Source: Actinomycetes bacterium (GTDB lineage Bacteria; Actinomycetota; CALGFH01). Taken from it: a stretch of 64,000 nucleotides of DNA. The notes under the pieces are model-generated. The model saw nothing but the letters and a program-made list of their open reading frames with translations, was not told the origin of the DNA and did no database searches. The translations under genes and the position numbers were made by a program. Below are positions 6,218 through 60,228 of the stretch, piece after piece (within the stretch, counting starts at the first letter, position 1; each line of letters starts with the position of its first letter). The stretch is from NCBI GenBank assembly GCA_036000965.1, contig DASYUT010000265.1, positions 24,555-88,554 of the forward strand. Direction: 5' to 3'.

Positions 6218-6364
6218 ACCACCGCCTGGGAGCTGGCTCCCGGTTCGGATGAGGCCGGGAGCCCTCGCGACCGCCCTCAGCGGGCCTCCTCAAGCGTGAC
6301 CAAAACGGTGTTTCATGGAGGCCGGTGGCGGCAGGGGCCGGCGTTCGGCGGAGGAGTTGCTGGC

Positions 6365-10196: not shown

Positions 10197-11121
10197 GGGA
10201 GGGGAACACGAACGCGTCGGCTGCCTGGTACCAGCAGGGAAGCTCCTGGTCCGGGACCGTGCCGAGCAGGACGACGTCCCGGCCCAGCTCGAGTCCTGAC
10301 GCCCGAGCCCGGGTCAGGACGCGGTCGCGGTAGGCGGCGTAGTCCTGGAACGAGTGGCCGCCGACGACCGCGAGCACGGGCGAGGGCTGCAGGGTGCGCC
10401 GCAGCGCGGCCATTGCCTCGATGAGCTCGGCGGCGCCTTTGCGTGGCTCGATGCCGCCGACGGTGAGGAAGAGGAAGCGGCCCTCCGCGCCCACCCTGGC
10501 GCGGAACGGACCTGGGTCGAAGGCCGGCACCCGGGCGAAGCGCTCGGCGTCGACCCCGTTGCGCACGACCTCGGCCGCCACGCCGTACTCCTCCTCGAGC
10601 ACCCGCCGCCACCAGTGGCTCACCACGAGGACGTGGTCGGGCTCGAGGATGGCCCGGCGCTGGCACTCGACCAGCGCCTGCGTGGTGAAGTCGTCGACGT
10701 GGTGGACGGTCCGCACCACCAGCACCGGCGCGCCGAGGTCGCGGACGCGCGCGGCGGCCCGGGCCGAGATGCAGTCCTGGGCGTGGAGGATGCGGGAGGC
10801 GGGCTGCAGGGCGGCCAGCCCTTCGGCGAGGACGTCGACCGACCGGAACACCCGCTCCTCGAGGTCGGGTGCTGGCGGCGGCGTGGGGATGATGGTGTGC
10901 TGGACCGTCGTGGGCCGGAAGAAGCCGGCCTCCGGGTCGCCGAGCGCCACGACGCGCACGGGCATGCCGAGCCGGTGGAGCGCCTCGGCCAGCTGCAGCG
11001 TGTGCACCACACCGCCCCGGGGCCTGGTCGAGTACGTCACCAGGACGACGTCGGCGCTGACCGGGCGCTCCTCCTGCTCCCGACCGGGCCCCGGCCCGCC
11101 CGCCGACGTAACGGGGGCCAC
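9886..11121 (-). CDS. GT4 family glycosyltransferase (MshA/MSMEG_0565-like)
   Basis: The N-terminal domain (VVLVTYSTRPRGGVVHTLQLAEALHRLGMPVRVVAL) and the C-terminal EGWGLVVLEAMAARLPVIATD motif fit GT4. The stop TGA is at 9886. The start is ambiguous: GTG at 11121 or GTG at 11181 inside the tandem repeat. Confidence 0.7.
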   Translation of the reverse strand: MAPVTSAGGPGPGREQEERPVSADVVLVTYSTRPRGGVVHTLQLAEALHRLGMPVRVVALGDPEAGFFRPTTVQHTIIPTPPPAPDLEERVFRSVDVLAEGLAALQPASRILHAQDCISARAAARVRDLGAPVLVVRTVHHVDDFTTQALVECQRRAILEPDHVLVVSHWWRRVLEEEYGVAAEVVRNGVDAERFARVPAFDPGPFRARVGAEGRFLFLTVGGIEPRKGAAELIEAMAALRRTLQPSPVLAVVGGHSFQDYAAYRDRVLTRARASGLELGRDVVLLGTVPDQELPCWYQAADAFVFPSLKEGWGLVVLEAMAARLPVIATDIPVFREYLVGGRDALLVAPGDVAALADAMRTTATDSELRARLGAAGRRVATRFRWEDSACQHEAVYARLADRWAAWQFAC

Positions 11122-11127
11122 CCCCGC

Positions 11128-11274
11128 TGGCCTCACGGGAACCCGCCCGCCGGCGTCACGGGGCCCGCCCGCCGGCGTCACGGGACCCCGCCCGCCGGCG
11201 TCACGGGACCCCGCCCGCCGGCGTCACGGGGCCCCGCCCGCCGGCGTCACGGGGCCCCGCCCGCGGTCTCGGGG
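11128..11274. repeat. 22/23-bp tandem repeat x~6 (ccccgcccgccggcgtcacgggg)
   Basis: Units at 11142, 11164, 11186, 11209 and 11232, plus a partial copy at 11255. The unit is not a multiple of 3. The array spans the fdrA stop codon and the GT 5' region. Confidence 0.8.
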
Positions 11275-12809: not shown

Positions 12810-12946
12810 GCGAACTGCCCGTCCCGCAGGTGGCCCTCGGCCTCGTCCGCGGTCATCGCGTTGGCCTGCTGCTCCTCGAACGTGCCAGCTTGATCGGCGC
12901 GGGTCAGGGCGTTGCCGCCCAAGGCCAGGACGACGGTCTGCTTCAT
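12806..12946 (-). CDS. 46-aa ORF resembling the N-terminus of carbamate kinase / amino-acid-kinase family; translationally coupled to fdrA (possible gene remnant)
   Basis: MKQTVVLALGGNALTRADQAGTFEEQQANAMTADEAEGHLRDGQFA* shows the AAK-family N-terminal motif (VV-ALGGNAL). GAGGA lies 10 nt upstream of the ATG at 12946. The stop overlaps the fdrA GTG. Confidence 0.35.
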   Translation of the reverse strand: MKQTVVLALGGNALTRADQAGTFEEQQANAMTADEAEGHLRDGQFA

Positions 12947-13094: not shown

Positions 13095-13763
13095 ATGATC
13101 CCTGCCATGCCTCCCGACCCTGCGAGCCCCCAGGGCGAGGTCCCGGACGAGGTCGTGCGCCGCTGGCGTGCTGCCGAGGAGCAGCTCTACCCGGTCGTCA
13201 TGACCCGGCCCGACCTCTACGAGCGCAGCATCCAGCTCGTGCGGGCCGTGGCCGACGAGCTGCGGCCGCTCACCACCCCGGCGGCGCTGCTGGCGGCGTA
13301 CGCGGGCGCCGCCGAGCTCGTGGCCGTCGTGATCCAGCGACAGGACCTGGCCGTCGAGGGCCTGGACTTCGGGCTCGCGACCGACGCCGCGTTCAGCCTG
13401 CGCTACCGCGAGGTCCTTGGCGAGGTCGCCCGGGAGCAGGCCATGGAGCGGGTCCGGGCGGCCAGGGAGCGGGGCGACGAGTGGGTGCTCCTGCACGAGA
13501 GCGGCACGCTCGCCCACGCACCGGCGGTGCCCTACCGCCGACTCGAGATGCGCCTCCGGGACGGCGCCGGCCTGCACATGTTCGTCCAGCAGGACCCGGC
13601 CACGGCCGGGCCGCTGTACGGGGTCGAGGCGGTGCAGCTCGACCCCCACACCGGCGACTGGCTGACCGACGCGGCCCCCTGGGCGCGGTCCGAGACGTTC
13701 GGCCAGCCGGAGCCCTGGCGGCGGCTGGCCGAGGAGCTGCGCGGGCGCCGGCAGAACCCTTGA
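13095..13763 (+). CDS. Hypothetical protein
   Basis: Clean 222-aa ORF with GGAGG 5 nt before the ATG. The composition is not an antisense artefact. It is the first gene of the plus-strand cassette ahead of the amidohydrolase, rSAM-like and GNAT genes. Confidence 0.5.
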   Translation: MIPAMPPDPASPQGEVPDEVVRRWRAAEEQLYPVVMTRPDLYERSIQLVRAVADELRPLTTPAALLAAYAGAAELVAVVIQRQDLAVEGLDFGLATDAAFSLRYREVLGEVAREQAMERVRAARERGDEWVLLHESGTLAHAPAVPYRRLEMRLRDGAGLHMFVQQDPATAGPLYGVEAVQLDPHTGDWLTDAAPWARSETFGQPEPWRRLAEELRGRRQNP

Positions 13764-13860
13764 CACCCTCCGCACCAAGCCCCCGACACCCTCCGCACCA
13801 ACCCTTGACACACCTTCCGCACCGTGGAAGATTTCCTTTAGTAGATGCCACTCTTCCAAA
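13759..13860 (+). promoter_or_regulatory. Three ~22-bp direct repeats each carrying TTGACA/CCGACA, followed by an AT-richer stretch; candidate promoter for the amidohydrolase/rSAM/GNAT genes
   Basis: ccTTGACAccctccgcaccaagccc, ccgacaccctccgcaccaaccc and TTGACAcaccttccgcaccgtgg, then gaagatttcctttagtagatg. Confidence 0.4.
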
Positions 13861-15918: not shown

Positions 15919-16399
15919 CCTCGAGGCGGCCGTCGGCGCGGACGCGACGGTCGGCTGCCGCCTGGTCGCCACGACCGCCGAGCGCGAGCTGCACCTGCGC
16001 ATCCGGGCGGAGGTCTTCGTCAACGAGCAAGGCCTGTTCGCCGTGACCGACCGGGACGCCCACGACGACGACCCGGGCACGCTGCACGTACTCGGGCTGT
16101 GCGGCCCCGTGGCCGCCGGCGCCGTGCGCCTGTACCCGCTGGACGAGCCGGGGCGCTGGAAGGGCGACCGCCTGGCCGTGCTGCCCGCGCTCCGCAAGCA
16201 CGGCCTCGGGGCGCCGCTGGTGCGGTTCGCGGTGCGCACGGCCGGCGAGCGGGGTGGCCGGGAGATGCTCGCCCACGTGCAGCTCCGCAACGTCGCCTTC
16301 TTCGAGCAGCTCGGCTGGCACCGGCTCGGCGAGCCGGCCGACTACTGCGGCCGGCCGCACCAGCGCATGCGCATCGGCCTGCGACCGCCCCGCACCTGA
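15872..16399 (+). CDS. GNAT family N-acetyltransferase
   Basis: The acetyl-CoA-binding region VRLYPLDEPGRWKGDRLAVLPALRKHGLGAPLV...NVAFFEQLGW fits GNAT. The probable TTG start at 15872 has GGAG upstream. Confidence 0.6.
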   Translation: MPATSAPISPFSTCADLEAAVGADATVGCRLVATTAERELHLRIRAEVFVNEQGLFAVTDRDAHDDDPGTLHVLGLCGPVAAGAVRLYPLDEPGRWKGDRLAVLPALRKHGLGAPLVRFAVRTAGERGGREMLAHVQLRNVAFFEQLGWHRLGEPADYCGRPHQRMRIGLRPPRT

Positions 16400-16442
16400 G
16401 CTGGAGGCGGCCCGGCCCGCACCTGAGCGGGAGGCGGCCCGG

Positions 16443-30474: not shown

Positions 30475-32705
30475 CCGCCGCGTCGCCACGGCCCGGCGAC
30501 CCTTCGCGGGTCGGCCCGTACGTCGTGCTCGAACGGCTCGGCCACGGCACGAAGGGCACCGTCTACCTTGGCCAGGCGGAGGACGGTAGGCTCGTCGCCC
30601 TCAGGACGATCCGCCCCGACTGGGCGCGGGACGACGAGTTTCGCGCCTGGTTGCGCCTTGCGGCCCACGCCGCCCGCCAGGTGGGGCGGCTCTGTACCGC
30701 CCCGGTCCTGGAGATCCAGCTCGACGCCGACCCTCCCTACCTTGTCACCGAGTACGTGGACGGCCCCAGCCTGCAGGCCTTCGTCGACGAGAACGGGCCG
30801 CTCGCCACCACGGCCCTCGACGGGCTCGCGGTTGCCACAGCCGCGGCGCTGATGGCGATGCACGCCGCTGACGTGGTGCACCACGACCTCAAGCCTACGA
30901 ACGTGCTGCTCTCCCCGCAGGGTCCCTGGGTTGTCGACGTCGCGATCGCCAAGGCGTTCCAGTCCGCAGTCGCCCTCGGCCGCACCGAGCTGGCCGCCAC
31001 GCCCGGCTTCCTCGCCCCTGAGCAGGTGCTTGGGAGGCAGGTGACGGCCGCCGCCGACGTCTTCGCCTGGGGCGGGGTCATCGCCTTCGCCGCGACGGGA
31101 CGGCCGCCCTTCGGCTCAGGCCCGCTGGGGGACGTGTCGCACCGGGTCGTCCACGAGGAGCCCCGGCTCGACAGCATGCCCGGCCCCCTGCGCGAGCTGG
31201 TCGCGGCCGCGATGCGGAAGGAGCCGAAGGCCCGCCCGGTGGCCCGGGACCTGTTCGAAGCCCTGACCGGCGGTACCGCCGCTGGCGACCCGCGCGCGGT
31301 CGTCCGGCAGGTGCTGGAGCACACCTGGAGCGAGGTCGGTCGCAGTGCCGCCGCGACGGCCAGCCCGAGCGCGGCACCGCAGCGGCCGGCTCCGCGCACG
31401 CCTGTCGGCCCCCCGCCCGCACCCGCCGCGGCCGACCCCGTGCACGCGCCCGCCGCACCCGCGTCCGCCGCGGCCGACCCCGCGCACGCGCCCGCCGCAC
31501 CCGCGTCCTCCGCGGCCAGCCCCGCGCGCGCACCCGCAGCGCCCGCGGCCAGCGCGGCCGACCCCGCGCGCGCACCCGCAGCGGCCGGGTCCGCGCCCGC
31601 GGCCGGCGACGCGGCGAACCAGGCGACCCCCCCGGCTGCGACTGCCGCCCCGGCCGGCGCGGACCGGGAGCGGGGCGCGGACCGGGAGCGGGTGGAGTGG
31701 ACCCAGCCACAATGGACGCCGCGCCTGGGGCGAAGACACCGTGGGTGGCCGCGGAGGCTGCTCGCGTTCGTCGCCGGCCTCGCGGTGGTCCTGGCGGCGC
31801 TCGTCGTCCCGGGCTGGCGAGACATCGTGGGCAGGGTGACGGCACCCCGGTGGCACCGGCTCGCCGACTTGCCCATCCCCGTGGCGGCCGCCGGGGTCAC
31901 CGCCTTCCAGGGGCGGCTGTGGGTCGCCGGCGGCATCACCACGCGCGACAACCAGCCGCAACCGGTACGTGACGTGCAGGTGTACGACCCGAAGGCCAGG
32001 CGCTGGAGCGCCGGCCCCAGCCTGCCGCGGCCGACGAGCTTCGCCCCGCTCGTGTCCACCGGGACGGCGCTGCTCCTGGTCGGTGGCCTGGTGTCGGACG
32101 GCTCCACCGCGACAGTCCTCCGCCTCGACGCGGCTGGCGGCAGGTGGGTCGAGGACACGCCGTTGCCCTCGCCGCGAGGCGCTGGCGCCGCTGCCTGGGA
32201 CGGGTCCCAGCTCGTGTTCGGGGGCGGCGTGCGGCGTGACCACAAGGCCGCTGACGACGTGTGGGCCATGAGGGAAGGGACCTGGAGGCCGATCGGCAGG
32301 CTGCAACGGCCTCGCGAGCAGCTCGCTGCCGGCACAGACGGCCGCGGCAACGTCTGGTTCCTGGCTGGCCGCGACCCCAGCCTTGCCGGCCACCAGAACC
32401 TTGGCACGGTCGACGTCGTGAAGAGCGGCCGCGTGCACCCGGCCCCGCAGCAGGTGACCCCCGTGCATGGCCCGAGCGCCGTGTGGTGGCCGGGCACGGG
32501 CGTCTGCCTTCTCGGTGGACAGCTCGCGAGCGGGTACTCCGGGCGGGTGGAATGCCTCGGCCGGCAGGATCGCGAAGGGCAGCTGCCGCCGTTGCCGGCG
32601 CCCCGGGCTGGGCTCGGCGCCGCCGTGATCGGCGACGTGGTCTACGTGGTCGGGGGCTACGGACTCGGCTTCTGGGGCAGCCCGCGGACCGAGTCGTTCC
32701 GGTGA
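30471..32705 (+). CDS. Ser/Thr kinase-like (probable pseudokinase: VALR, HHD, DVA variants) with Pro/Ala-rich repeat linker, TM segment and C-terminal Kelch/beta-propeller domain
   Basis: Kinase fold LERLGHGTKGTVY, HHDLKPTNVLL and GFLAPEQ. The beta3 Lys is replaced by Arg and DFG reads DVA. Kelch-like repeats from ~aa 520. The GTG at 30471 overlaps the upstream TGA. Confidence 0.7.
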   Translation: MTAASPRPGDPSRVGPYVVLERLGHGTKGTVYLGQAEDGRLVALRTIRPDWARDDEFRAWLRLAAHAARQVGRLCTAPVLEIQLDADPPYLVTEYVDGPSLQAFVDENGPLATTALDGLAVATAAALMAMHAADVVHHDLKPTNVLLSPQGPWVVDVAIAKAFQSAVALGRTELAATPGFLAPEQVLGRQVTAAADVFAWGGVIAFAATGRPPFGSGPLGDVSHRVVHEEPRLDSMPGPLRELVAAAMRKEPKARPVARDLFEALTGGTAAGDPRAVVRQVLEHTWSEVGRSAAATASPSAAPQRPAPRTPVGPPPAPAAADPVHAPAAPASAAADPAHAPAAPASSAASPARAPAAPAASAADPARAPAAAGSAPAAGDAANQATPPAATAAPAGADRERGADRERVEWTQPQWTPRLGRRHRGWPRRLLAFVAGLAVVLAALVVPGWRDIVGRVTAPRWHRLADLPIPVAAAGVTAFQGRLWVAGGITTRDNQPQPVRDVQVYDPKARRWSAGPSLPRPTSFAPLVSTGTALLLVGGLVSDGSTATVLRLDAAGGRWVEDTPLPSPRGAGAAAWDGSQLVFGGGVRRDHKAADDVWAMREGTWRPIGRLQRPREQLAAGTDGRGNVWFLAGRDPSLAGHQNLGTVDVVKSGRVHPAPQQVTPVHGPSAVWWPGTGVCLLGGQLASGYSGRVECLGRQDREGQLPPLPAPRAGLGAAVIGDVVYVVGGYGLGFWGSPRTESFR
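31431..31598 (+). repeat. 42-bp in-frame tandem repeat x4 encoding (ADPxHAPAAPASxA)n in the kinase linker
   Basis: gccgaccccgtgcacgcgcccgccgcacccgcgtccgccgcg and three near copies. Confidence 0.7.
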
Positions 32706-32774: not shown

Positions 32775-32926
32775 CGGCGTGAGGACGGAAAGCCCGCGGC
32801 GTGAGGAACGGAGAGCCCGTCGAGATCCGGGTCCCGGCGGTGGTGGCGCACTGGCCTCACGAGCGCAACGACCGGGGGTGGCGGACTGGCCTCACGAGAG
32901 CAACGACCGGGTGGTGGCGCACTGAC
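32775..32926. repeat. Two sets of direct repeats (22-bp x2; ~37-bp x2.4) upstream of the beta-PGM/GH65 gene
   Basis: ggcgtgaggacggaaagcccgc / ggcgtgaggaacggagagcccg, then ggtggtggcgcactggcctcacgagcgcaacgaccggg / ggtggcggactggcctcacgagagcaacgaccggg / tggtggcgcactgacc. Confidence 0.65.
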
Positions 32927-32948
32927 CCCCTACGGGAGGAACGACCAG

Positions 32949-35900
32949 GTGGTGACGGTCATGGCGTACCAAGGTGCGATCTTCGACGTGGACGGCGTCC
33001 TGGTCGACTCGCCACACGAGCTGGCCTGGCGCGAGGCGCTCAGGCAGCTGATGGACGGCGACTGGCGCGACATCCGCGACCAGACGGCCTACACCCCTGA
33101 ACGCTTCACCCCCACGGTGTACCAGCAGGTGATGGCCGGCATGCCCCGGATGGCCGGCGCCCGCGCCGCCCTGGAGTACTTCGGGGTGCCCGACGTCGAC
33201 CGCCGGGCCGAGCAGTACGCGGCCGGCAAGCAGGAGCGCGTGGTCGAGCTGATCGAGGCAGGCGAGTTCGTGGCGTTCGCCGACGCGCTCCGGTTCATCC
33301 TGGCCGTCAAGGACCTCGGAATCGCGACCGCAGCCGCGTCGTCGTCCAAGAACGCCAACCTGTTCCTGCAAAGGATCCGCCTGGACACCTTCGCCGCCGA
33401 GCAGCGGCTGGACTACCAGTTCATCCGGCCCGGGCTCACCCTGCTCGACCTGTTCGACGCCGACATCTCCGGACGCGACTTCCCGCGCGGCAAGCCGGAC
33501 CCGACGATCTTCTTGACCGCGGCCGAGGAGCTGGGCGTCCGCCCGAGCACCTGTTTCGTGGTCGAGGATGCATCCAGCGGGATCCAGGCGGCCAAGGCGG
33601 CCACGATGGCGGCCCTCGGCGTGGCCCGCCTCGGCGACGAGGAGCTGCTGGCCAAGGCCGGCGCGGACCTGGTCGTGACCACGCTCGACGACGTCTCCCT
33701 GGACGCCCTGGCCGAAGGCCGGCTCGAGGAGCGGCGGGCGGCCGGGGAGCGCCGGCGGCGGCATACCGAGCGGCCGCCGAGCGTCTGGTCCCTCGTCTAC
33801 GACGGCTTCGACCCGGAGTGTCAGGGGCTGCGCGAGACGCTGTGCGCCCTGGGCAACGGATTCTTCGTGACCCGCGGCGCCCTGCCCGAGGCCCAAGCGG
33901 ACGGGGTCAACTATCCGGGCACCTACGTGGCCGGCCTGTACAACCGGCTCAAGACCAAGATCGCCGGCCGCACGGTCGAGAACGAGGACCTCGTCAACGT
34001 CCCGAACTGGCTGCCTCTCAGGTTCCGGGCCGCCGACGGGCCGTGGTTCGACGTCCGCAGCGCCGACGTCCTGGACCACAGCCTCGAGCTCGACCTGCGC
34101 GAGGGGACGCTCACCAGGCACCTGCGCTGGCAGGACCCGGATGGCCGCCGCACGGGCATGGTGCAGCGCCGGCTCGTCAGCATGAAGGACGAGCACCTGG
34201 CCGGCCTGGAGACCACCTTCACGGCCGAGAACTGGTCGGGGACGCTGGAGGTCCTCTCGGGACTGGACGGCCGGGTCGTGAACGCCGGGGTGAAGCGCTA
34301 CCGCGACCTGAACGGCCGCCACCTGGACGTGCTCCACGCGGGCGAGGTGGACCCCGACACGGTCGAGCTGCAGGTGGAGACCAACCAGTCCCACATCCGG
34401 GTGGCGCTCACGGCCCGCACCAGGCTCCTGCTGGACGGCCGGCGCGCAGCCGACCGGCGCCTGGTCGCCGAGCCCGGGTTCGTCGGCCACGCGCTCACGC
34501 TCAACCTGGAGCAGGGCCGGCCAGCCACGGTCGAGAAGGTGGTCGCCCTCTACACCTCCCGAGACCGCGCGATCTCCGAGAGCCTGCTGGACGCGCGCGA
34601 GGCGGCGCGGCGCGCGCCCGACTTCGACGAGCTCCTGGCCCGGCACAGGGGTGCCTGGAGCCTCCTGTGGAACCGCTTCGACCTCCAGCTGGACAGCGCC
34701 AACGAGTGGATCGAGACGGTCCTGCACCTCCACATCTTCCACCTGCTGCAGACCGTGTCGCCGTACGCGACCCACCTCGACGTCGGCGTCCCGGCGCGTG
34801 GCTGGCACGGGGAGGCGTACCGGGGCCACATCTTCTGGGACGAGCTGTTCATCTTCCCGTTCCTGAACTTCCAGCGACCGATCCTGGCGGGCGCGCTGCT
34901 CAACTACCGCCACGCCCGCATCGGTGCGGCCCGCGCGGCGGCCCGGGAGGCCGGGTACCGTGGGGCGATGTTCCCGTGGCAGAGCGGCAGCAACGGGCGC
35001 GAGGAGACCCAGGAGCTGCACCTGAACCCGCGCTCCGGTCGCTGGCTGCCCGACCACTCCCACCTGCAGCGCCACGTCAACATCGCGATCGCGTACAACG
35101 TCTGGCAGCACTTCATGGTGACCGGGAGCATCCAGTTCCTCCGCTTCACCGGCGCCGAGCTGCTGCTCGAGATCGCGCGGTTCTGGTCCAGCATCGCCAC
35201 CTACGACCCGGAGCTGGACCGCTACGAGATCCTCGGCGTGATGGGACCGGACGAGTACCACGACGCCTACCCTGACAGCGACCGGCCCGGCGTGAGCAAC
35301 AACACCTACACCAACGTCGGGGCGGTCTGGGTGCTGCTCCGGGCCCTTGAGACCCTCGAGGTGCTGCCGCCGCACTACCGGCAGGAGGTGACCGAGGAGC
35401 TGCGGCTCGGTGAGGACGAGCTCGACCGCTGGCGCGCCATCACCCGCAAGATGCGGGTCGTCTTCCACGCCGACGGCGTGCTCAGCCAGTTCGAGGGCTA
35501 CGAGCAGCTGCAGGAGTTCGACTGGGAGGGCTACCGGGCCAAGTACGGCGACATCCAGCGGCTCGACCGGGTGCTCGAGGCCGAAGGCGACAGCCCCAAC
35601 CGGTACAAGGTCTCCAAGCAGGCCGACGTCCTGATGCTGCTGTACCTGCTGTCCCGCGACGAGCTGCGGGAGCTGCTGCGCAACCTCGGCTACGAGGTGA
35701 CGCAGGACCAGCTCGCCCGGACCGTCACCTATTATCTCGAGCGCACCTCGCACGGGTCCACGCTCAGCGGCGTGGTGCACGCCTGGGTGCTCGCGCGCAT
35801 GGACCCGGAGCAGGCGTGGCAGTTCCTGCTCCGGGCGCTGGAGAGCGACATCGCCGACGTCCAGGGCGGGACCACCGCCGAGGGCATCCACTTGGGGGCG

Positions 35901-41395: not shown

Positions 41396-42637
41396 TCACT
41401 CCGGCAGCAGCAGGTTGTGCTGCCGGTCCCACACCAGCCGGACCGGCCGCCCCTTGGCGGCCAGCACCTCCATCGACGAGGTGGCGAGGTTCTGCTGGGT
41501 CACGACCAGCTCGCCGCCCACGTCCAGGCGCACCACGAAGCGCGTCTGCGAGCCGAGGTAGGCGACGTCGGCGACGACTCCGGTGGCGGTGCTCTCGCCG
41601 GCGCCTGGCGTCCCGTCCAGCTCGGTGATCCGGATCTTCTCGGGCCGGACGGTGAAGGTGCCGTCCCGGCCGGTGACCGCCCGCGCGGCCTCGCCCCCGA
41701 GGAGGTTCGACGTGCCCACAAAGCCGGCCACGAACGCGCTGCCCGGTCGCTCGTACAGCTCGGCCGGCGTGGCGATCTGCTCGATCCGGCCTTGGCTGAA
41801 GACGGCGATGCGGTCGCTCATCGTGAGAGCCTCGTCCTGGTCGTGGGTGACGAACACGAACGTGATCCCCACCTCGTGCTGGATCGCCTTCAGCTCGCGC
41901 TGCATCTCCTCGCGCAGCTTGCGGTCCAGGGCGCCGAGGGGCTCGTCGAGCAGCAGCACACTCGGCCGGTTGACCAGCGCCCTGGCCAGCGCCACGCGCT
42001 GGCGCTGCCCGCCGGACAGCTGGGAAGGCCGCCGGCCGCCGAAGCCCTCCAGCCGGACCAGACGCAGTGCGTCGGCCACGCGCGCGGTGCGCTCCGCCTT
42101 GGCCACCTTCTTCACCAGCAGCCCGTAGGCCACGTTGCCGGCGACGCTCATGTGCGGGAAGAGGGCGTAGTCCTGGAACACGGTATTGACGTCGCGCTCG
42201 TAGGGCGGGCGGTCGGTGACGTCCTCACCGTGGAGCAGGACCCGGCCCGCAGTCGGCGTCTCGAAGCCGGCGATCAGCCGCAGGCAGGTGGTCTTGCCGG
42301 AGCCGGAGGGGCCGAGCAGCGAGAAGAACTCGCCAGCGCGGACCTCCAGATCGACCCCGGCCACGGCCTCGACGTCGCCGAACCGCTTGACCACCCCGGC
42401 GAGGCGGACGGCCGCCTGGCCAGGTGACGCGGCTGGGGCCCGCCCGTCGACGCCGGGCTGGTCCGCGCCCGGCCGCCTGGCCCGCCCGAGGGTGTCCAGC
42501 GCCCAGGCGCCCCCACCCTGGCCGGATGCAGGCTGGCCGGATCCAGGCTGGCCGGATCCAGGCTGGCCGGATCCAAGCTGGCCGGATCCAAGCTGGCCGG
42601 ATCCAAGTTGGGAGGGAGCCTCGTCAGGACCTGTCAT
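41396..42637 (-). CDS. ABC transporter ATP-binding protein (PotA/PotG-like) with N-terminal (L/PGSGQ)6 repeat extension
   Basis: Walker A GPSGSGKTT, signature LSGGQRQRVALARAL, Walker B VLLLDEPLGALD and a C-terminal TOBE-like domain. ATG at 42637 with GAGGAGGGG immediately upstream. Confidence 0.8.
   Translation of the reverse strand: MTGPDEAPSQLGSGQLGSGQLGSGQPGSGQPGSGQPASGQGGGAWALDTLGRARRPGADQPGVDGRAPAASPGQAAVRLAGVVKRFGDVEAVAGVDLEVRAGEFFSLLGPSGSGKTTCLRLIAGFETPTAGRVLLHGEDVTDRPPYERDVNTVFQDYALFPHMSVAGNVAYGLLVKKVAKAERTARVADALRLVRLEGFGGRRPSQLSGGQRQRVALARALVNRPSVLLLDEPLGALDRKLREEMQRELKAIQHEVGITFVFVTHDQDEALTMSDRIAVFSQGRIEQIATPAELYERPGSAFVAGFVGTSNLLGGEAARAVTGRDGTFTVRPEKIRITELDGTPGAGESTATGVVADVAYLGSQTRFVVRLDVGGELVVTQQNLATSSMEVLAAKGRPVRLVWDRQHNLLLPE
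42518..42607 (-). repeat. 15-bp in-frame tandem repeat x6 (ctggccggatccagg) encoding (L/P)GSGQ repeats
   Basis: Six consecutive 15-bp units. The translation is LGSGQLGSGQLGSGQPGSGQPGSGQPASGQ. Confidence 0.75.
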
Positions 42638-42732: not shown

Positions 42733-45210
42733 TCACTCCGCCCAGGTTCGAGCGAGCGACTGCAGGGCCTCGACAGCCGGGCCGACATCGATCTGCTGCT
42801 CACCCTCCTGCCCGGCCGGGACGAGGGGGAGGAGCATCTGATGGGCGGGGCGGAGCGCCGTTCCGAGGTCGGCGGGGGTCAGGCCGCGGCGTGCCACCGC
42901 CCAGGATGCCACCAACGCCTCGATCCCGACGACCACCCATGCACTCTGGAGCAGCCGCTCCGCCTCGGCCAGCGCATGGGGCGCGAGACCGGCGACATCC
43001 TCCACCCCTTCCGCGAGCTGCCCGTGGTAGTGGGGGGTGACCGGCATCGCCGCGATCGACGAGGTTGCGACGTGGGCGGCGACGATGTAGCTGAGGTTGA
43101 GGAACTGGGCTCCGCCCGAGGCGCCCGCCTCGGCGGCCAGTCCCATGGGAAGGCCGCTGAAGCTCGACCAGTGCAGCTTGTGGGTTCGTTCCGCGCTCGC
43201 CCGAAGCGCCTTGGCCAGCGCCAGCCTGAGCGCGTCCATGGTGATGGCGAGCAGCGTCGTCTCCGGGTTGCCGTGAGACACCAGCTCGCCGGTTGCCAAG
43301 TCGACCAGGGGGTTGTCGACCGTCGCGTTGAGCTCCCGCTCCCAGGTCTGCCAGGTCCAGGCGAGGGTCTCCCGGCCCGCGCCGCTCACCTGGGGGACGC
43401 AGCGGAAGCTGAGCGGGTCCTGGAGGAACCGCGGTTCGCCGGGTCGCCACAGGCGACTGCCCGCAAGCAGCCGGCGGAGCCGTTCCCCCGCCCACCGGTG
43501 GCCGGGCTGGGGGTGGGCCTGGTCGACGACGGCGCTCCATGCCTGCGGGTTGCCGCGGAAGCCCTCCAGCGCCAGCGCCGCGGCGATGTCCATGGCGATG
43601 AGGAGCCTGCGCGCCTCTGCCAGGACGAGCGCGCCGCGACCGAGGGTGAGGCTGTTGTTGTTGACGAGGGCCAGCGCCTCCTTCGGTGCGGGGGAAGCGG
43701 GCGCGGCCGGCGGCTGCTCCGGCCCGCGCCCGTCGCCCGCGAGCAGCGTGCCGCCACCGACCAGGGGCAGCGCCAGCTGCGCGAGCGCCACGAGGTCCGA
43801 GGCGCCCACCGAGCTGCCGAGGTCGACTGCTGGCAAGCGGTCGTCGCGCAGGTTGGCCAGCAACCATTCGACCAGCGCGGGCCGGACCCCGGAGCGCCCG
43901 CTGGCAAAGAGGTTCACCTGGATCGCCATGCAGGCGCGCACGAGCTCCGCCGGCGCCACGGGCCCGGGCGAGCGCGTGGCGTGTGCGTAGAGCAGCTGCC
44001 GGTTGAACTCCTGCAGCCGCTCCGTCTCGATCATGTAGTCCTTCTGGGAGCCCACCCCTGTCGTGGTGCCGTACGCCCGCACGCGCTGGTCCACGAGCTG
44101 CTCGACCACGGCTCGCCCCCGGGCGATCCGCTGCCACGCCGCTTGCGGGACCTCGACTGTGGCCGTGCCGCTGGCGATGCGTTCCACGTCGTCGATCCGA
44201 AGGCTCTCGCCGTCGAGCAGCACGGGAGCCGTGCTGGGACCGGCCTCGTCCAGGACGCCCTGCCGCGTCGGCATGGGGACCCTCCGCTTGGCCGCGTGCA
44301 TGAGGTGGAGCAGTAGCCGGATCACCGTGTCGGACGTCGTCTGGCCGACGTCCAGCGAGGGGAGGAGGCCGACGACGCAGACGCCGACGACCCTGCCGCG
44401 CGCCGAGAGGCCGCGCAGCAGGGCGGCTGCCTCGTGGAAGAGCAGGCCGCCCTGGCGTGGGCGGCTCGTCCCTGGCGCGATCGACGGGTCGAGGCCGTCC
44501 ACGTCCAGGGTGACGAGGAACCGCCCGCCTTCCGGAAGCCGGCCCAGCAGCCAGTCCACGCCGTGCATCCGCACGTCGACGGCGTCGACCAGCAGCGTGC
44601 CGGCGTCCCGGGCGTCCCGGGCGTCCCGGGCGTCCCGATGCGCCTCGATCTGGACGACATGGGGTGGCCCCGAGCCCTCGTAGGCTTGGAGCACGCACTG
44701 TGGGATGGAGCCGTCGCCGCCGAGCACGATCGGCACGACGTCGCGTTCGACGAGCGCATGGACCACCCGGGTCGTGCCTTCCCGCTGGAGGGCCGGGTCA
44801 CGCGGGTCGGCAGGGACGTCGCCGCAGTCCACGAGCGACACGGGGCCGCCGTCGAGGACGTCGCCGGCGTCGTGCGAGAGCAACCCCGCGAACCGCTGCG
44901 AGCGTCGTCGGAGCACCGCTGGGGCGTCGCAGGCGTCGGACCCGGCCCCGTGAGCGTCCGACCCGGCCACGTGTGCGTCCGACCCGGCCCCGTGAGCGTC
45001 CGATGCAGCCCCGTGTGCGTCAGACCTGGCCACGTGTGCATCCGATGCAGCCCCGTGTGCGTCGGACCTGGTCCCGTGCGCGTCGGACGGTGCTCCGCAG
45101 GGCGCTCCGACCACCGCGAAGCCGGTGGCCACGGTAGACGGGTCGTGGTGCGCCGGAGCATCGAGGAAGGTGCCCGCCTCCCGGCCAGGTGGCAGCAGGG
45201 TGATGGCCAT
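42733..45210 (-). CDS. Fusion ORF: arginase/formiminoglutamase-family ureohydrolase domain (N-terminal) + histidine/aromatic ammonia-lyase-family domain (C-terminal) with degenerate MIO motif
   Basis: N-terminal domain VPIVLGGDGSI...LVTLDVDGLDP (ureohydrolase). C-terminal domain with a HAL-like N-terminus (LLDGESLRIDDV...AYGTTTGVGSQKD), but SVGAS-D replaces the Ala-Ser-Gly MIO triad. No stop separates the domains. ATG at 45210 with GGAGGAAGG upstream. Confidence 0.55.
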   Translation of the reverse strand: MAITLLPPGREAGTFLDAPAHHDPSTVATGFAVVGAPCGAPSDAHGTRSDAHGAASDAHVARSDAHGAASDAHGAGSDAHVAGSDAHGAGSDACDAPAVLRRRSQRFAGLLSHDAGDVLDGGPVSLVDCGDVPADPRDPALQREGTTRVVHALVERDVVPIVLGGDGSIPQCVLQAYEGSGPPHVVQIEAHRDARDARDARDAGTLLVDAVDVRMHGVDWLLGRLPEGGRFLVTLDVDGLDPSIAPGTSRPRQGGLLFHEAAALLRGLSARGRVVGVCVVGLLPSLDVGQTTSDTVIRLLLHLMHAAKRRVPMPTRQGVLDEAGPSTAPVLLDGESLRIDDVERIASGTATVEVPQAAWQRIARGRAVVEQLVDQRVRAYGTTTGVGSQKDYMIETERLQEFNRQLLYAHATRSPGPVAPAELVRACMAIQVNLFASGRSGVRPALVEWLLANLRDDRLPAVDLGSSVGASDLVALAQLALPLVGGGTLLAGDGRGPEQPPAAPASPAPKEALALVNNNSLTLGRGALVLAEARRLLIAMDIAAALALEGFRGNPQAWSAVVDQAHPQPGHRWAGERLRRLLAGSRLWRPGEPRFLQDPLSFRCVPQVSGAGRETLAWTWQTWERELNATVDNPLVDLATGELVSHGNPETTLLAITMDALRLALAKALRASAERTHKLHWSSFSGLPMGLAAEAGASGGAQFLNLSYIVAAHVATSSIAAMPVTPHYHGQLAEGVEDVAGLAPHALAEAERLLQSAWVVVGIEALVASWAVARRGLTPADLGTALRPAHQMLLPLVPAGQEGEQQIDVGPAVEALQSLARTWAE
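44932..45085 (-). repeat. 21-bp in-frame tandem repeat x7 encoding (SDAHGAx)n inside the arginase-like N-terminal region
   Basis: gcgtccgacccggccccgtga and its variants are repeated consecutively. Confidence 0.75.
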
Positions 45211-45388
45211 CCTTCCTCCGTGCTGTCGAGGGTCAGGGAACGGGGACGTCGCCACCGTGCCAGATATTCTTGCGCCTCGGGGCCTCCGCCGAGCCGTGCC
45301 GGACCCCTCGAGGCTGCGCCGAGCGTGCCGGACGCCTCCGGGCCTCCCCGAGGCGTGCCCGACCACGCCGATGCCGGCGGACCGCCGG

Positions 45389-46782: not shown

Positions 46783-46810
46783 GCGACCGCCTCGAGGTTG
46801 AGCGATGCAG

Positions 46811-46856
46811 TGAGGTTAAGCGATTCAGTGAATCGATTAAGTGAAGCGCTTAACCA
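46811..46856. promoter_or_regulatory. Cluster of LacI-type operator-like palindromes (AAGCGCTT, AATCGATT) in a divergent promoter
   Basis: gttaagcgattcagtgaatcgattaagtgaagcgcttaac lies in a locally AT-richer stretch between the amidohydrolase/CDO operon and the lacI-family gene. Confidence 0.45.
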
Positions 46857-46896: not shown

Positions 46897-47014
46897 GCAG
46901 GTGGGCCCCTGGCCGGACCACGCCGCAGCGGGGACAGGTGGCCTCCGGCCAGACCGGGCCGCAGCGGGGACAGGTGGCCTCCGGCCGGACCGGACCGCAG
47001 CGGGACAGGAATCC
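46897..47014. repeat. 36-bp tandem repeat x~3 (ccgcagcggggacaggtggcctccggccNgaccggN)
   Basis: Copies at 46923 and 46959, with partial copies at 46897 and 46995. Confidence 0.7.
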
Positions 47015-47053: not shown

Positions 47054-48082
47054 ATGTCGCGGCCACGCAAGCGAGTCACGATCCAGCAGGTCGCCGAGGC
47101 CGTCGGGTTGTCGGCCGCGGCTGTCTCCTACGCCCTGCGCGGAAGCCACGTCTCCAAGGAGACCGAGGAGCGTGTCCGGCGGGTGGCCACCGAGCTGGGC
47201 TACGAGGCACACCCGATCGCCCGCGCGCTGGCGAGCGGCCGCACGAGCATGGTGGGGGTGATCTCGGGCTCGCTGGAGGACCTGTGGCAGCAGCAGGTGA
47301 GCGTCGGCATCGGGCGCGAACTGCTGGCCCGCGACCTGTACGCGCTCATCGTGGACGCGGGGGGCGACCCGGAGCGCGAGCAGGCCCTGGCGCTGCAACT
47401 GCGCGACCAGAGCGTCGACGGTCTCATCCTGTCCCCGCTGGACCCCTCCGCGCCGCTCTGGGCGGACCTCGCCGAGACCCTGCCCGTGGTGGCCATCGGG
47501 GACTCCCTGCAGGGCGCGCGACCGACCGGCGAGGTGCTGTTCGACAACCGGGCGGGCGTGACGCTGGCGCTGGAGCACCTGCACCAGCTCGGGCACCGGC
47601 GCATCGCGGTGCTGACCTCGACCCAGCCCAGCACCCCGGACCGCCCGGCAGACACCTACGTGCTGGCCGAGGCGCGGCGGCTCGGTCTCGACGTCGCCGT
47701 GCGGACCGCGCCCCACTCCCTCGCCGAGGCCACCAAGGTGGCCAGGAAGGTGCTCTCCGCAAACAGCCGGCCCACCGCGCTGTTCTGCTTCTCCGACTCG
47801 ATCGCCTACGGCGGGTATGCGGCAGCCCGGGACCTCTCCCTGCGGATCCCCGCCGACCTGTCGATCACCGGGTACGACAACCACCCGGTGTCGTGCCTGC
47901 TGTCCCCGCCCCTGACGACCTTCGACTGGGACCGCGAGGGGATCATCCGCACGGCGGTCCAGCTCGTGGTCGCCGCCATCAACGGCAGGCCGCGCCGGCG
48001 CCGGGTCGTCAAGACACCCGTGCTGCACCTGCGAGGGTCCACCGGCGCGCCCCCTCGACCCGGACCACGCCGCCGCTCCTGA
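47054..48082 (+). CDS. LacI family transcriptional regulator
   Basis: N-terminal HTH VTIQQVAEAVGLSAAAVSYALRG and a periplasmic-binding-protein-like effector domain. Alternative GTG start at 47048. Confidence 0.8.
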   Translation: MSRPRKRVTIQQVAEAVGLSAAAVSYALRGSHVSKETEERVRRVATELGYEAHPIARALASGRTSMVGVISGSLEDLWQQQVSVGIGRELLARDLYALIVDAGGDPEREQALALQLRDQSVDGLILSPLDPSAPLWADLAETLPVVAIGDSLQGARPTGEVLFDNRAGVTLALEHLHQLGHRRIAVLTSTQPSTPDRPADTYVLAEARRLGLDVAVRTAPHSLAEATKVARKVLSANSRPTALFCFSDSIAYGGYAAARDLSLRIPADLSITGYDNHPVSCLLSPPLTTFDWDREGIIRTAVQLVVAAINGRPRRRRVVKTPVLHLRGSTGAPPRPGPRRRS

Positions 48083-48300
48083 CCAGCTGTCGTTCCTGAC
48101 CGGCCGCCGCTCCCGGCGGCCGCTCCTGACCAGCCGCCGCACCCGACCAGCCGCCGCACCCGACCAGCCGCCGCACCGGACTGGCCGCCGCACCCGACCA
48201 GCCGCCGCACCCGACCAGCCGCCGCACCGGACTGGCCGCCGCACCGGACTGGCCGTCGCACCCGACCAGCCGTCGCACCCGACCCGCCGCGGTTCCCGAC
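48077..48300. repeat. 17-bp tandem repeat array x~12 (gaccagccgccgcaccc) filling the convergent intergenic region
   Basis: Consecutive 17-bp units run from the lacI stop codon to just before the ADH stop. The unit is not a multiple of 3. Confidence 0.85.
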
Positions 48301-48316
48301 CGGGGACGAGACCAGG

Positions 48317-49474
48317 TCACGACGCGGGCACCGCGCCGGCGAGCACCGGATCGAGGATCGCGACCGTGCGCGCCGCCCCGTCGCCCCGGCGGAGGCGGTC
48401 GAACGCCGCCTCGAGGCCGTCGAGGTCGGTGAGGTCGGAGACCCCCGTGGCGAGGTCGAGCAGCCCGTCGGCCGCCAGGCGCGCGAGCTCGGCGACGTCC
48501 GCGGCCGGATCCCCGGACCCGTAGTAGGAGCCCTTGAGGCCCTTCTCGGCGAGCAGCTCGATCCCCGGGACCGCCACCTCCACCCCCTTGGGCACGATCC
48601 CCACCACCACCGCGGTGGCGCCAGGTCGGAGCAGGTCCCAGGCCAGCCGGACCGTTTCGGGCTGCCCGACCACCTCGAACGCGTGGTCGACGCCGACGCT
48701 CGTGAGCCCGAGCGTCGCCGCGACCGGGTCGTCGCGCACCGAGTCCAGCACGTGCGTCGCCCCGGCCGCCAGCGCACGCTCGAGCTTGGCGGGGTCGCGG
48801 TCGACGGCGACAATGGGGTCGGCCCGGGCCAGGCGCGCGCCCGCGACGACCTGCAGGCCGACGCCCCCGCAGCCCACCACCGCCACGCTCTCGCCGGGCT
48901 CCACGCGCGCGGCGTGACGCACCGCGCCGACGCCGGTCACCACACCGCAGCCGATCACGGCCGCCTGCCACAGCGGCAGGACCGGCGGGATCGGGACGGC
49001 CGAACCAGCCGGGACCACGCTGCGCTCGGCGAAGCACGAGACGAAGTTGAAGTGCTTGAGTGGCCGGCCGTCAAGGAGCGACAGGCGCGAGGTCCCGTCG
49101 AGCAGGGTCCCCGCCCAGGACCGGCCGGCCGCCGTCCGGCACAAGTTGCGCCGTCCCGCCAGGCACTCAGGGCAGGTGCCGCAGCTCGGCACGAAGCAGA
49201 ACGCCACCGGGTCACCGGGCGCCACATGACCGACTCCCGCGCCCACCTCCTCGACCACGCCCGAGCCCTCGTGGCCGAGCACGGTCGGCCAGCGCCCATC
49301 CCCGAGGTGCCCCTCGGCGAGGTGCAGGTCGGAGTGGCAGACCCCGGCCGCCGCGACGCGCACGAGCACCTCGCCGGCGCGCGGCGGTTCCAGCCGGACC
49401 TCCTCGACCACGAGGGGCCTCCGGGCCTCGTGCAGCACCGCTGCCCGCACCGTGCGGGTCTCGTGCGCCACCAC
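48317..49474 (-). CDS. Zinc-dependent alcohol dehydrogenase (class III / formaldehyde-dehydrogenase-like)
   Basis: GVCHSDLH, GHEGSG and the structural-zinc Cys cluster CGTCPEC, with Rossmann GCGGVG. The GTG start has GAGG upstream. Confidence 0.8.
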   Translation of the reverse strand: MVAHETRTVRAAVLHEARRPLVVEEVRLEPPRAGEVLVRVAAAGVCHSDLHLAEGHLGDGRWPTVLGHEGSGVVEEVGAGVGHVAPGDPVAFCFVPSCGTCPECLAGRRNLCRTAAGRSWAGTLLDGTSRLSLLDGRPLKHFNFVSCFAERSVVPAGSAVPIPPVLPLWQAAVIGCGVVTGVGAVRHAARVEPGESVAVVGCGGVGLQVVAGARLARADPIVAVDRDPAKLERALAAGATHVLDSVRDDPVAATLGLTSVGVDHAFEVVGQPETVRLAWDLLRPGATAVVVGIVPKGVEVAVPGIELLAEKGLKGSYYGSGDPAADVAELARLAADGLLDLATGVSDLTDLDGLEAAFDRLRRGDGAARTVAILDPVLAGAVPAS

Positions 49475-52319: not shown

Positions 52320-54514
52320 GGCCCGGGCTCGGCCGTCACGCTCCCTGTCGCGCCCAGCTGCAGGCGCCGCAGCTCCTCGATGGGGATGTGGCAGCGTATG
52401 AGGTGGCCGGGCTCGACCTCGGCCAGCAGGGGCTCGCTCTGCTCGCAGATCGGGCCCAGCTTGCGGGGGCAGCGCGTGTGGAACACGCAGCCCGAGGGCG
52501 GGGAGGCGGCGCTCGGGATCTCGCCGGAGAGCCGGATGCGCTCGCGAGTCCCGCCGCGGCCCTGCTCCTGGCCGTGGCCGGTGGCCAGGATCGGCGCCGC
52601 CGACAAGAGCGCCTCGGTGTAGGGGTGGTGGGGCCCCCGGAACACGACGTCGGCCGGGCCCACCTCCATCAGGCGCCCGAGGTACAGCACCGCGATCCGG
52701 TCGGCGACGAAGCGCACCACGCCCAGGTCGTGGGAGATGAACAGGTAGGTGACGCCCTCGTCGCGCTGCAGGTCCACCAGCAGGTTGAGGATCGCGGCCT
52801 GCACCGAGACGTCGAGCGCGGAGGTGGGCTCGTCGCACACCACCACACGGGGCTCCCCGGCGAACGCACGGGCGATGGCCACACGCTGCTTGAGGCCCCC
52901 CGAGAGCTGTGCCGGCTTGGCGTCGAGCGCGGGCCGGTCGAGCCGGACCGAGCGCGTCAGCTCCATGATGCGCCGCTCGCGCTCGTCGCCGCGCAGCCCC
53001 AGGAGCTTGGCCAGCGCCCGGCCGATGATCCGGTGCACCGAGTGCCGGCGGTTGAGCGAGGAGTCGGGGTTCTGGAACACGATCTGGATCTCGCGCACCT
53101 GCTCCGGCGAGCGGTGCACGATCCTGGGATCCAGCGGCGCGTCGTCCAGCTCGACGACCGAGCCCTTGTCGGGTCCGGTGAGCCCGAGCAGCGACCGTGC
53201 CAGGGTGGTCTTGCCGCTGCCCGACTCGCCCACGAGGCCGAGCACCTCCCCGCGCCGGATCGCGAGCGAGATGTCGGTGAGCGCCTGCACCTCGCGCCCC
53301 TCCTGGTGGAACGTCTTGGACAGGTGGTCCAGCCGCACGACCGGCCCTGCCGCAGCCGGTGCCCCGGCGTCCGGCCGACCGTCCCCGCCCGGGCCCCGCG
53401 CGCCGGCGGGGGCCTCCCGCGCCGCCGAGGGCGGACCATCGCCGCCAGGGCCCCGCGCGCCGGCGGGCACCTCCCGCTCGACCGAGACCGGGAGCTCCTG
53501 GGCTCGCTCGTGGAAGAAGCAGCGGCTCTGGTGGCCGGCGCCCGTCTCGTAGAGGGCCGGCTCCTCCTGGCGGCAGCGCTCCTCGGCCAGCCCGCAGCGG
53601 TCGGCGAACACACACCCCGGGATCACCGCCCCGATGGGCGGGGGGAACCCGGGGATGGTGTCGAGCACGCCCCGGTCCTTGCTGTCGCCCCACTTGGGGA
53701 CGGCTCGCAGCAGGCCCACGGTGTAGGGGTGGCGCGGGTCGCCGAGCAGCGTGCTGGTCGCACCCTCCTCCACCAGCCGTCCGGCGTACAGGACCCCGAT
53801 GCGGTCGCACATGCGCGCGATCACGCCGAGGTTGTGGCTGATGAACAGCACGCTCGTCTGGTACTCGCGCCGCAGCGCCGCCACCAGGTCGAGCACCTCC
53901 GCCTCCACCGTCGCGTCGAGCCCGGTGGTGGGCTCGTCGAGGATCAGCAGCGAGGGGTTGGCCGCCAGCGCCATCGCGATGACCACCCGCTGCTGCATGC
54001 CGCCGGAGAGCTGGTGGGGGTAGCGGCGCATCACGCCAACGGGGTCGGAGATCTGGACCTTCTGGAGCATCGCGCGGGCACGCTGGTGCGTCTCGTCCTT
54101 GGCCGTGCCCAGGACCCGGAAGGACTCGGCCACCTGGTCGCCAACCCGGATCGAGGGGTTCAGGGCGGTCCCGGGGTTCTGGTAGACCATCGAGACGGTA
54201 TGGGAGCGCAGCCGCCTGAGCCCCTCCTCGTCCATGCGGAACAGGTCGGCGCCGTCGATGCGGATCTCGCCCGACGTCACCCGCGCGTTGCGGGGCAGGT
54301 AGCGCATGGCGGCGAAGGCGACCGTGGACTTGCCGCAGCCGGACTCGCCGACCAGCCCGTAGGACTCGCCGCGGGCCACCTCGAAGCTGACGCCGCGGAC
54401 AGCCTCCCGGTCCCTGCCCCGCACGCGGTAGGCGAGCCTGAAGTCCGACACCTCGAGGGCCGGGACGGCCGCGGGCACGGTGGCACCGGGCTCGAGCGGC
54501 GCAGCGGCGCTCAC
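52316..54514 (-). CDS. ABC transporter ATP-binding protein, fused duplicated ATPase (DppD-DppF / OppD-OppF type)
   Basis: Two complete NBDs (GESGCGKST...LSGGMQQRVVIAMAL...LILDEPTTGLD and GESGSGKTT...LSGGLKQRVAIARAF...VVCDEPTSALD), each with a C-terminal oligopeptide-type extension. The GTG overlaps the permease stop. Confidence 0.85.
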   Translation of the reverse strand: MSAAAPLEPGATVPAAVPALEVSDFRLAYRVRGRDREAVRGVSFEVARGESYGLVGESGCGKSTVAFAAMRYLPRNARVTSGEIRIDGADLFRMDEEGLRRLRSHTVSMVYQNPGTALNPSIRVGDQVAESFRVLGTAKDETHQRARAMLQKVQISDPVGVMRRYPHQLSGGMQQRVVIAMALAANPSLLILDEPTTGLDATVEAEVLDLVAALRREYQTSVLFISHNLGVIARMCDRIGVLYAGRLVEEGATSTLLGDPRHPYTVGLLRAVPKWGDSKDRGVLDTIPGFPPPIGAVIPGCVFADRCGLAEERCRQEEPALYETGAGHQSRCFFHERAQELPVSVEREVPAGARGPGGDGPPSAAREAPAGARGPGGDGRPDAGAPAAAGPVVRLDHLSKTFHQEGREVQALTDISLAIRRGEVLGLVGESGSGKTTLARSLLGLTGPDKGSVVELDDAPLDPRIVHRSPEQVREIQIVFQNPDSSLNRRHSVHRIIGRALAKLLGLRGDERERRIMELTRSVRLDRPALDAKPAQLSGGLKQRVAIARAFAGEPRVVVCDEPTSALDVSVQAAILNLLVDLQRDEGVTYLFISHDLGVVRFVADRIAVLYLGRLMEVGPADVVFRGPHHPYTEALLSAAPILATGHGQEQGRGGTRERIRLSGEIPSAASPPSGCVFHTRCPRKLGPICEQSEPLLAEVEPGHLIRCHIPIEELRRLQLGATGSVTAEPGP

Positions 54515-60079: not shown

Positions 60080-60112
60080 CAGCGGCCTCCTTGGTGACGC
60101 CGTGCGTCGGGG

Positions 60113-60228
60113 TGGTGGCCCGTCGGGATGGTGGCCCGTCGGGATGGTGGCCCGACGGGGTGGTGGCCCGACGGGGTGGTGGCCCGACGGGGTGGTGGCC
60201 CGTCGGGGTGGTGGCCCGACGGAGCCTA
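60113..60228. repeat. 16-bp tandem repeat x7 (ggtggcccgNcgggNt) upstream of the deaminase gene
   Basis: Seven consecutive units lie between the amidohydrolase stop and the deaminase start. Confidence 0.8.

Follow-up and report, generated by a model that had tools for sequence, protein, structure and literature searches.

The described systems closest to the locus analysed here are the locus-specific VNTRs of Mycobacterium tuberculosis (ETR/QUB) and of Burkholderia mallei and Burkholderia pseudomallei. In these systems a unit of 10-100 bp is repeated head to tail without a spacer, mostly in the intergenic DNA of a high-GC organism. The units carry point variants, and their copy number varies between strains. 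The units of the mycobacterial VNTRs are about 50-80 bp long. Another actinobacterial system is MIRU, that is, intergenic tandem units of 40-100 bp that touch a neighbouring gene's stop or start codon and vary in copy number. MIRU form one dispersed family, present at many loci. The tandem repeats of Borgs, which are archaeal extrachromosomal elements, are intergenic, start in the end of an ORF, or lie within genes with units divisible by three. They have many locus-specific units, evolve fast, are absent in relatives and break contigs (bioRxiv 10.1101/2022.05.18.492195).

In the present study we analysed a 64-kb stretch of DNA from an uncultured actinomycete (called the window below; G+C, 73%), which contains a 17-bp tandem array between two convergent genes. 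The array shares the features of the VNTRs listed above. It differs from them in that its unit is shorter than those of mycobacteria, that its host is an uncultured actinomycete, and that its origin from the stop-codon region of the upstream gene is directly visible. In contrast to MIRU, the unit is confined to one locus of the window, in which each array has its own unit; the unit did not occur at many loci, either in the window or in a scan of 185,579 species with a two-unit pattern, which matched one unrelated genome. The arrays of the window resemble the Borg repeats in the respects given above, but those are perfect and A-rich, whereas the arrays described here are imperfect, G+C-rich and placed in a bacterial chromosome-like context.

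Position and units of the array

The gene upstream of the array encodes a LacI-family transcriptional regulator of 342 aa (47054-48082, + strand; Pfam LacI and Peripla_BP_3/1), which ends in ...RPGPRRRS*. Converging on it is a gene of the Zn-dependent alcohol dehydrogenase (ADH) family (48317-49474, - strand, 385 aa; Pfam ADH_N and ADH_zinc_N), and the spacer between the two genes is 234 bp. The LacI protein is 100% identical to HEV8652242.1 ('MAG TPA: Actinomycetes bacterium'), and its nearest named relatives are in Carbonactinospora, Thermomonospora and Actinomadura.

TRF placed the array at 48058-48301, with a period of 17, 14.5 copies, 81% matches and a score of 253. It was clear that these contiguous head-to-tail copies are far beyond chance, because the TRF score was 254 in the observed DNA and at best <=95 in 20 dinucleotide shuffles of the whole window. 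Matches of the 17-mer with at most 3 mismatches numbered 12 in the window, as compared to 2.6 +/- 1.5 after dinucleotide shuffling; not one shuffle in 100 gave as many. Ten of the 12 matches sit in the array, and the 2 outside are at chance level.

We parsed the array by hand, cutting it at the GAC[C/T] anchor (all units are read on the + strand). Unit 1 (48063-48080, 18 bp; GACCACGCCGCCGCTCCT) codes for the C-terminal P-R-R-R-S of the LacI protein, and the LacI stop codon TGA (48080-48082) straddles the junction between units 1 and 2. Unit 2 (48081-48097; GACCAGCTGTCGTTCCT) is non-coding and copies the end of the ancestral gene. It contains GTCGTTCC followed by a second TGA at 48097-99, and this is the same as the coding end of the sister species. 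Unit 3, together with a nested 13-bp sub-repeat, occupies 48098-48127 (CCGGCCGCCGCTC / CCGGCGGCCGCTC, 2 copies; TRF row 48100-48126, period 13) and finishes at a third TGA (48127-29). Nine in-phase 17-bp core units follow at 48128-48280, each with 0-3 mismatches from GACCAGCCGCCGCACCC. That is, units 1-3 each close on TGA, and the core units, in which the stop has been lost, carry CGA at that place. The last unit (48281-48297; GACCCGCCGCGGTTCCC) is degenerate and is unchanged in three other alleles (L001, L002 and L005, described below). The short unique spacer before the ADH stop (48298-48316) is probably a remnant of an ancestral intergenic spacer of ~40 bp, a reading based on similarity by eye, not on a scored alignment, to the 42-bp LacI-ADH spacer of a sister species (L021).

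Three variants occur in the core units. The first is CCAG to CTGG (GACTGG...), which is always accompanied by C to G in the base preceding the unit; the second is CCGCC to CCGTC; and the third is a terminal C to G (..ACCG). The order of the core units hints at a higher-order period of 51 bp (3 units), and a 51-bp period with 93% matches is found in allele L001. Since 51 bp is divisible by 3, we considered whether the array might be translated. This was rejected because GC3 supports only the LacI and ADH frames here and the array comes after the stop.

In three arrays of the window (48128-48280; 60108-60222; 44933-45088) the unit variants are complement flips centred in short palindromes (CCAG<->CTGG, CCG[T/A]CGG and GTC[G/C]GAC). 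These flips could be a signature of template switching, or chance. For the change of CCAG to CTGG, an origin as a template-switch or inversion product was dropped, since the three linked changes misfit a simple inverted copy.

These results bear on the first-pass annotation of this DNA, which had described a 17-bp x12 repeat filling a convergent intergenic region. The array was recovered at that place by TRF, by the parse by hand and in the comparison with shuffles, and the flanking genes are those that had been named. The count of 12 is fair, with nine good units and 4-5 degenerate ones, and the GACTGG variant is genuine. The extent, given as running from the LacI stop to the ADH stop, needs correction at both ends, because the array starts ~20 bp inside the LacI gene and ends 16-19 bp before the ADH stop (48317-19). 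A CRISPR array, which likewise has short repeated units in non-coding DNA, had rightly been set aside: the units here abut without unique spacers of similar length, and the 17-bp unit is shorter than CRISPR repeats. A search of the genome for other copies of the 17-mer had been proposed. As searched in the window, there are none beyond chance outside the array.

Alleles, relatives and the origin of the array

Genes for exactly this LacI protein are present on seven other contigs, which come from different metagenome assemblies; for six of them the DNA could be compared. Among these six same-species contigs, from six metagenome assemblies and with identical LacI protein, we found at least three alleles of the array. 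In L001, L002 and L005 there are 7 core units, and the 13-bp sub-repeat is present 3 times, as compared to 9 and 2 in the window. Allele L006 lacks the 13-bp repeat, and L003/L010 terminates in a junction that skips the core. A metagenome scan with a left-flank pattern gave no extra alleles and returned only an already-known contig. Of the seven contigs, four (L003-L006) break off within the array or shortly past it, with L005 reaching its last unit. Contig ends at repeats are usual in short-read assemblies. These copy numbers come from short-read metagenome assemblies, in which the exact structures of arrays longer than a read may be partly wrong; arrays shorter than 100 bp, which are less open to this doubt, also show whole-unit differences. 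Thus the comparison of copy number across assemblies that the first-pass annotation had suggested was carried out, and its idea of a VNTR-like locus held, since contigs of the same species from other metagenomes differ in both the number and the order of the units. As in a VNTR, copy number differs between close strains in these short-read assemblies.

The differences between these contigs are concentrated in tandem arrays. Over 7.1 kb of L002, all 7 substitutions and both indels with respect to the window lie inside the 17-bp array, and the remainder is identical. In L001, aligned over 8.4 kb, all 6 indels fall in tandem arrays, and four of them are whole units (30 = 2x15, 9, 21 and 36). The two indels in the 17-bp array itself (17 + 4 bp) sum to -21, that is, -2x17 + 13. 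Of the 22 substitutions in this alignment, 9 are in array DNA, which takes up 9% of the span. Four of the 5 indels of L010 (13.7 kb) are also in arrays. This distribution of differences indicates that the arrays are hypervariable sites of the population.

The sister species, in which the LacI protein is 92-94% identical and the DNA identity is ~92%, lack the array, and it is also absent in more distant relatives (LacI identity, 72-85%). In three sister-species loci (L018-L020) a lone proto-unit, GAGCCACGCCGTCGTTCC-TGA, is present, and the DNA after it is unrelated. This proto-unit is the single-copy counterpart of unit 1, and the gene there ends in ...CGA CCC GAG CCA CGC CGT CGT TCC TGA. In these three loci MR_MLE comes next after the LacI gene, and ADH is missing. 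In three others (L021-L023) the LacI gene stops six codons earlier, and a spacer of 42 bp leads to the ADH stop.

The coding end of the ancestor (..CCGTCGTTCC-TGA) is repeated in unit 2 of the window (..CTGTCGTTCC-TGA). Thus the array began when the final ~17 bp of the gene were duplicated along with the stop codon. The sister species are without the array, and one has a single proto-unit; these findings point to a recent origin by tandem duplication, followed by slippage. We therefore think that the array is very probably a young, locus-specific minisatellite (VNTR) that was born in situ from the end of the LacI gene.

The course of events would be as follows. At first the final ~17 bp of the LacI-family gene, stop codon included, would be duplicated in tandem. 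The first TGA still terminates the protein, so that the protein was left unchanged and non-coding DNA was added to the convergent spacer. Replication slippage or unequal recombination would then add and remove copies, 17 bp or the nested 13 bp at a time and perhaps 51 bp, while the inner copies lost the stop (TGA to CGA) and became homogenised. We infer slippage as the mechanism, and also neutrality, the latter from non-conservation only.

The same first step, a duplication over a stop codon, is found independently elsewhere. In L013 a 33-bp sequence is duplicated (x2) over the stop of the orthologous LacI gene (about 8180-8250), where the relative L008 has one copy. In L018 there is, by eye, a duplication of roughly 65 bp over the MR_MLE stop (11030-11125). 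Both of these two-copy duplications have the appearance of minisatellites being born. Two arrays of the window, with units of 23 bp (13755-13823) and 27 bp (16385-16442), have the TGA of the upstream gene in their unit 1. A further case is the Kitasatospora array described below, which begins at the stop of an MFS gene. Stop-spanning duplications leave the protein as it is, and this accounts for their survival.

The 23-bp units at 13755-13823 include a TTGACA-like string, CCTTGACAC, which also provides the TGA stop of the upstream gene. This array has the top sense-strand C/G ratio of the window, 3.8.

The surroundings of the LacI gene differ on its two sides. The divergent left neighbours (a gene for a 299-aa protein, CDO_I and an aromatic lyase) are conserved across relatives. 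The downstream gene varies in almost every lineage, being ADH, MR_MLE, amidohydrolase, DeoC, a response regulator, GAF or FMN_dh in a comparison of the window from 48083 onwards with L007, L011, L013, L015, L016, L018 and L021. Thus the 3' end of the LacI gene is also a synteny breakpoint. This variation downstream is the single hint in favour of the recombination hotspot that the first-pass annotation had put forward as a possibility. In the divergent promoter region 5' of the LacI gene there are AT-richer short repeats (AAGCGATTAAGTG-like, window 46794-46853), with counterparts in the sister species (CGCTTCAGTGAAC x2.5; L018 9872-9904 and L021 4055-4085). These repeats may be candidate operator sites.

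Termination and other explanations

The explanation that survives best beside a young minisatellite is that the array is a zone of Rho-dependent termination, in which ~220 nt of untranslated, C-rich, G-poor and unstructured RNA loads Rho. Such a zone would stop transcription of the LacI gene before it enters the ADH gene in the antisense direction. This is compatible with an origin by slippage and would add a function to it. In segments of 78 nt, the C/G ratio of the LacI-sense strand had a mean of 1.87 and a maximum of 2.3, which is the 99th percentile of the window. That is, as judged by composition only, C-rich, G-poor, unstructured and untranslated RNA of at least ~80 nt does lie past the stop. 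The arrays that follow genes at 13755 (+) and 60108 (-) are also among the most C-rich sense-strand stretches, and the units after a stop in Kitasatospora (described below) are, by eye, also C-rich on the sense strand of the upstream gene. Furthermore, the + strand has no stable fold (z = +0.27) and the spacer has no intrinsic terminator. A rut-type Rho-dependent terminator is thus similar to the array, with its C/G of ~1.9 over more than 200 nt, its lack of structure and its place directly past the stop, but the likeness is one of composition, and the array is not conserved in the sister species.

Several results speak against Rho loading. The sister species do with spacers of 42-93 bp and without an array, copy number varies freely, and other arrays of the window, read in the direction of their upstream gene, are rich in G or balanced. 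In addition, the pattern comprises 3-4 cases, and its basis is composition. We therefore consider a Rho-dependent zone improbable here, although it may be selection for Rho loading, and not chance, that makes the arrays after stop codons C-rich. The absence of the array in the sister species, together with its free variation in length, argues against a required function. Taken comprehensively, the array has no conserved sequence-specific function and at most gives the LacI transcript an untranslated tail that is C-rich and G-poor.

The first-pass annotation had also offered a structured terminator, considered here as a hairpin serving as a bidirectional intrinsic terminator for both convergent genes. 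What favours this is a 9-bp G+C hairpin in the allele of the window (48101-48122, + strand; CGGCCGCCG-CTCC-CGGCGGCCG), which is the only solid hairpin of the array, and the 4-bp complementarity that the CCAG/CTGG variants give between adjacent units. However, the hairpin is created by a single C to G change in the second copy of the 13-bp sub-repeat and is absent from L001, L002 and L005, and an inverted-repeat search found only pairs made by one allele-specific base. Moreover, the minimum free energy of neither strand is better than that of shuffles: the + strand RNA folds at -110.1 kcal/mol as compared to -111.4 +/- 4.9 in shuffles (z = +0.27), and the - strand has z = -1.46. A scan of the spacer for promoter and terminator consensus found no promoter-like site, no stem with a T-run and no intrinsic terminator, so that a stable G+C hairpin with a T-run and a fold above background is lacking. 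Rfam gave no match at the gathering score in the whole window, and a permissive Rfam scan of the locus gave only a chance-level match (E = 0.31) outside the array. A hairpin terminator is therefore very improbable, and this suggestion had to be given up.

It is equally hard to credit that the 17-mer is a motif under selection or a mobile one, for instance an iteron bound by a protein or an element inserting at TGA-CC gene ends. This would account for one observation. When we searched 185,579 species (one genome each) with a two-unit degenerate pattern, a single place matched, in Kitasatospora sp. A2-31 (NZ_JAKNTA010000015.1, L009 2187-2304), a member of a distant genus. This is a 7-copy array of GACCGGCCGCCGCACCC, 1 mismatch from the unit of the window. 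It starts from the stop codon of a gene for an MFS transporter whose sequence ends in ...ARRS*, and it is situated upstream of an SDR gene. Its unit and that of the window converge on ...CCGCCGCACCCGACC. However, this is the one match among all these genomes, the window has no further copies beyond chance, and in the sister species the unit arises in place from the gene's own end. Both arrays share as their seed a common high-GC coding string, CGC-CGC-(Ser)-TGA-CC (Arg-Arg-Ser-stop), and by a rough estimate of our own, not computed by a tool, the chance of such a match is of the order of 0.05, which is not negligible. We read the likeness as convergence from similar seed sequences, perhaps aided by a (CCG)n-like core, although a shared cause may lie behind it. 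The 8-kb Kitasatospora locus contains six tandem-repeat arrays. A BLAST search of the array against plasmids gave a lone match, a Pro-rich coding repeat of a Kitasatospora plasmid, which was judged compositional.

Finally, that the array or its length is an artefact of assembly is scarcely believable, for although the data are short-read metagenomes and the contig ends mentioned above fall at the array, the array recurs in six independent assemblies (ENA, JGI) as well as in the window, each time with identical unique flanks and with its first three units and its last unit the same, and two of the six span it fully into the ADH gene.

Tandem arrays across the window and their meaning

The view of the array as a young minisatellite agrees with the remainder of the window, in which TRF (score >= 50, period >= 7) found 27 arrays covering 2,326 bases, as compared to ~3 arrays and ~130 bases in shuffles. 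About 19 arrays were placed against a gene map based on GC3, and 16 of these 19 are in intergenic DNA, which is ~10% of the window (binomial P ~ 1e-13). Tandem repeat makes up about 23% of the intergenic bases of the window. Besides the 17-bp array, intergenic arrays with periods of 15-44 are located at 6090-6220, 11095-11264, 13755-13823, 16385-16442, 32839-32954, 42518-42605, 44933-45088, 45275-45364, 46898-47009 and 60108-60222. Every array has its own unit, and arrays are found in convergent, divergent and co-directional spacers. Two points had thus escaped the first-pass annotation, namely the derivation of the array from the gene's own 3' end, stop included, and its being one of many intergenic arrays.

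The three arrays within genes (31416-31594, 44602-44637 and 53373-53486) have periods of 42, 9 and 57 bp, respectively, all divisible by three, and presumably encode amino-acid repeats. The 9-bp array shows a one-unit difference in L001. Whole-unit differences between same-species contigs were also seen in a 15-mer array (5.9 vs 3.9 copies), a 21-mer array (7.4 vs 6.4) and a 36-mer array (3.1 vs 2.1). The same process as at the LacI gene would act genome-wide, and selection would spare arrays only where they are harmless, that is, in intergenic DNA (including arrays that start within the end of a gene), or in genes if the unit is a multiple of 3.

Between 10197 and 11246 there is a 1-kb gap between convergent genes without a confidently called gene. 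A 23-bp x7 array closes the gap and overlaps the gene at 11247-12812 (- strand) at its 3' end.

To compare the window with surveyed genomes, we made a SATFIND-like count, in which an array is an exact decamer occurring at least 4 times with regular spacing. This gave 4 arrays in 64 kb, about 62 per Mb, a value with wide sampling error since it comes from one window. The same count gave 0 arrays in 71 kb of the loci of relatives. By the original method, the number of satellites per Mb has a median of 0-3 in bacteria and is 4.2 in S. coelicolor and 21.9 in B. mallei chromosome II (Subirana & Messeguer 2019, PMC6749651).

In conclusion, the array is an ordinary young VNTR in a satellite-rich uncultured soil actinomycete, of a kind that is already well known, and there is no sign of a conserved function. 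By itself it is of small importance, with a possible use as a marker for strain typing. It also serves as a warning that contigs of this lineage break at such arrays. The locus and its relatives together offer a clean birth series, from a single gene end through a stop-spanning duplication to a multi-copy homogenised array.

A bolder reading, which goes by the sequence of this one window, is that the lineage (near Streptosporangiales) may have an unusually active, genome-wide birth of minisatellites from the 3' ends of genes. Its arrays would number tens per Mb, more than 10 times the figure of typical bacteria, and would be comparable in kind to those of Borgs/Methanosarcina, with C-rich post-stop arrays retained as Rho-loading spacers. 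Taken as a whole we regard this reading as rather unlikely. The window does suggest a bacterial lineage with a satellite density far above that of the surveyed reference genomes, and if the high density is genome-wide, it would indicate a peculiarity of replication or repair.
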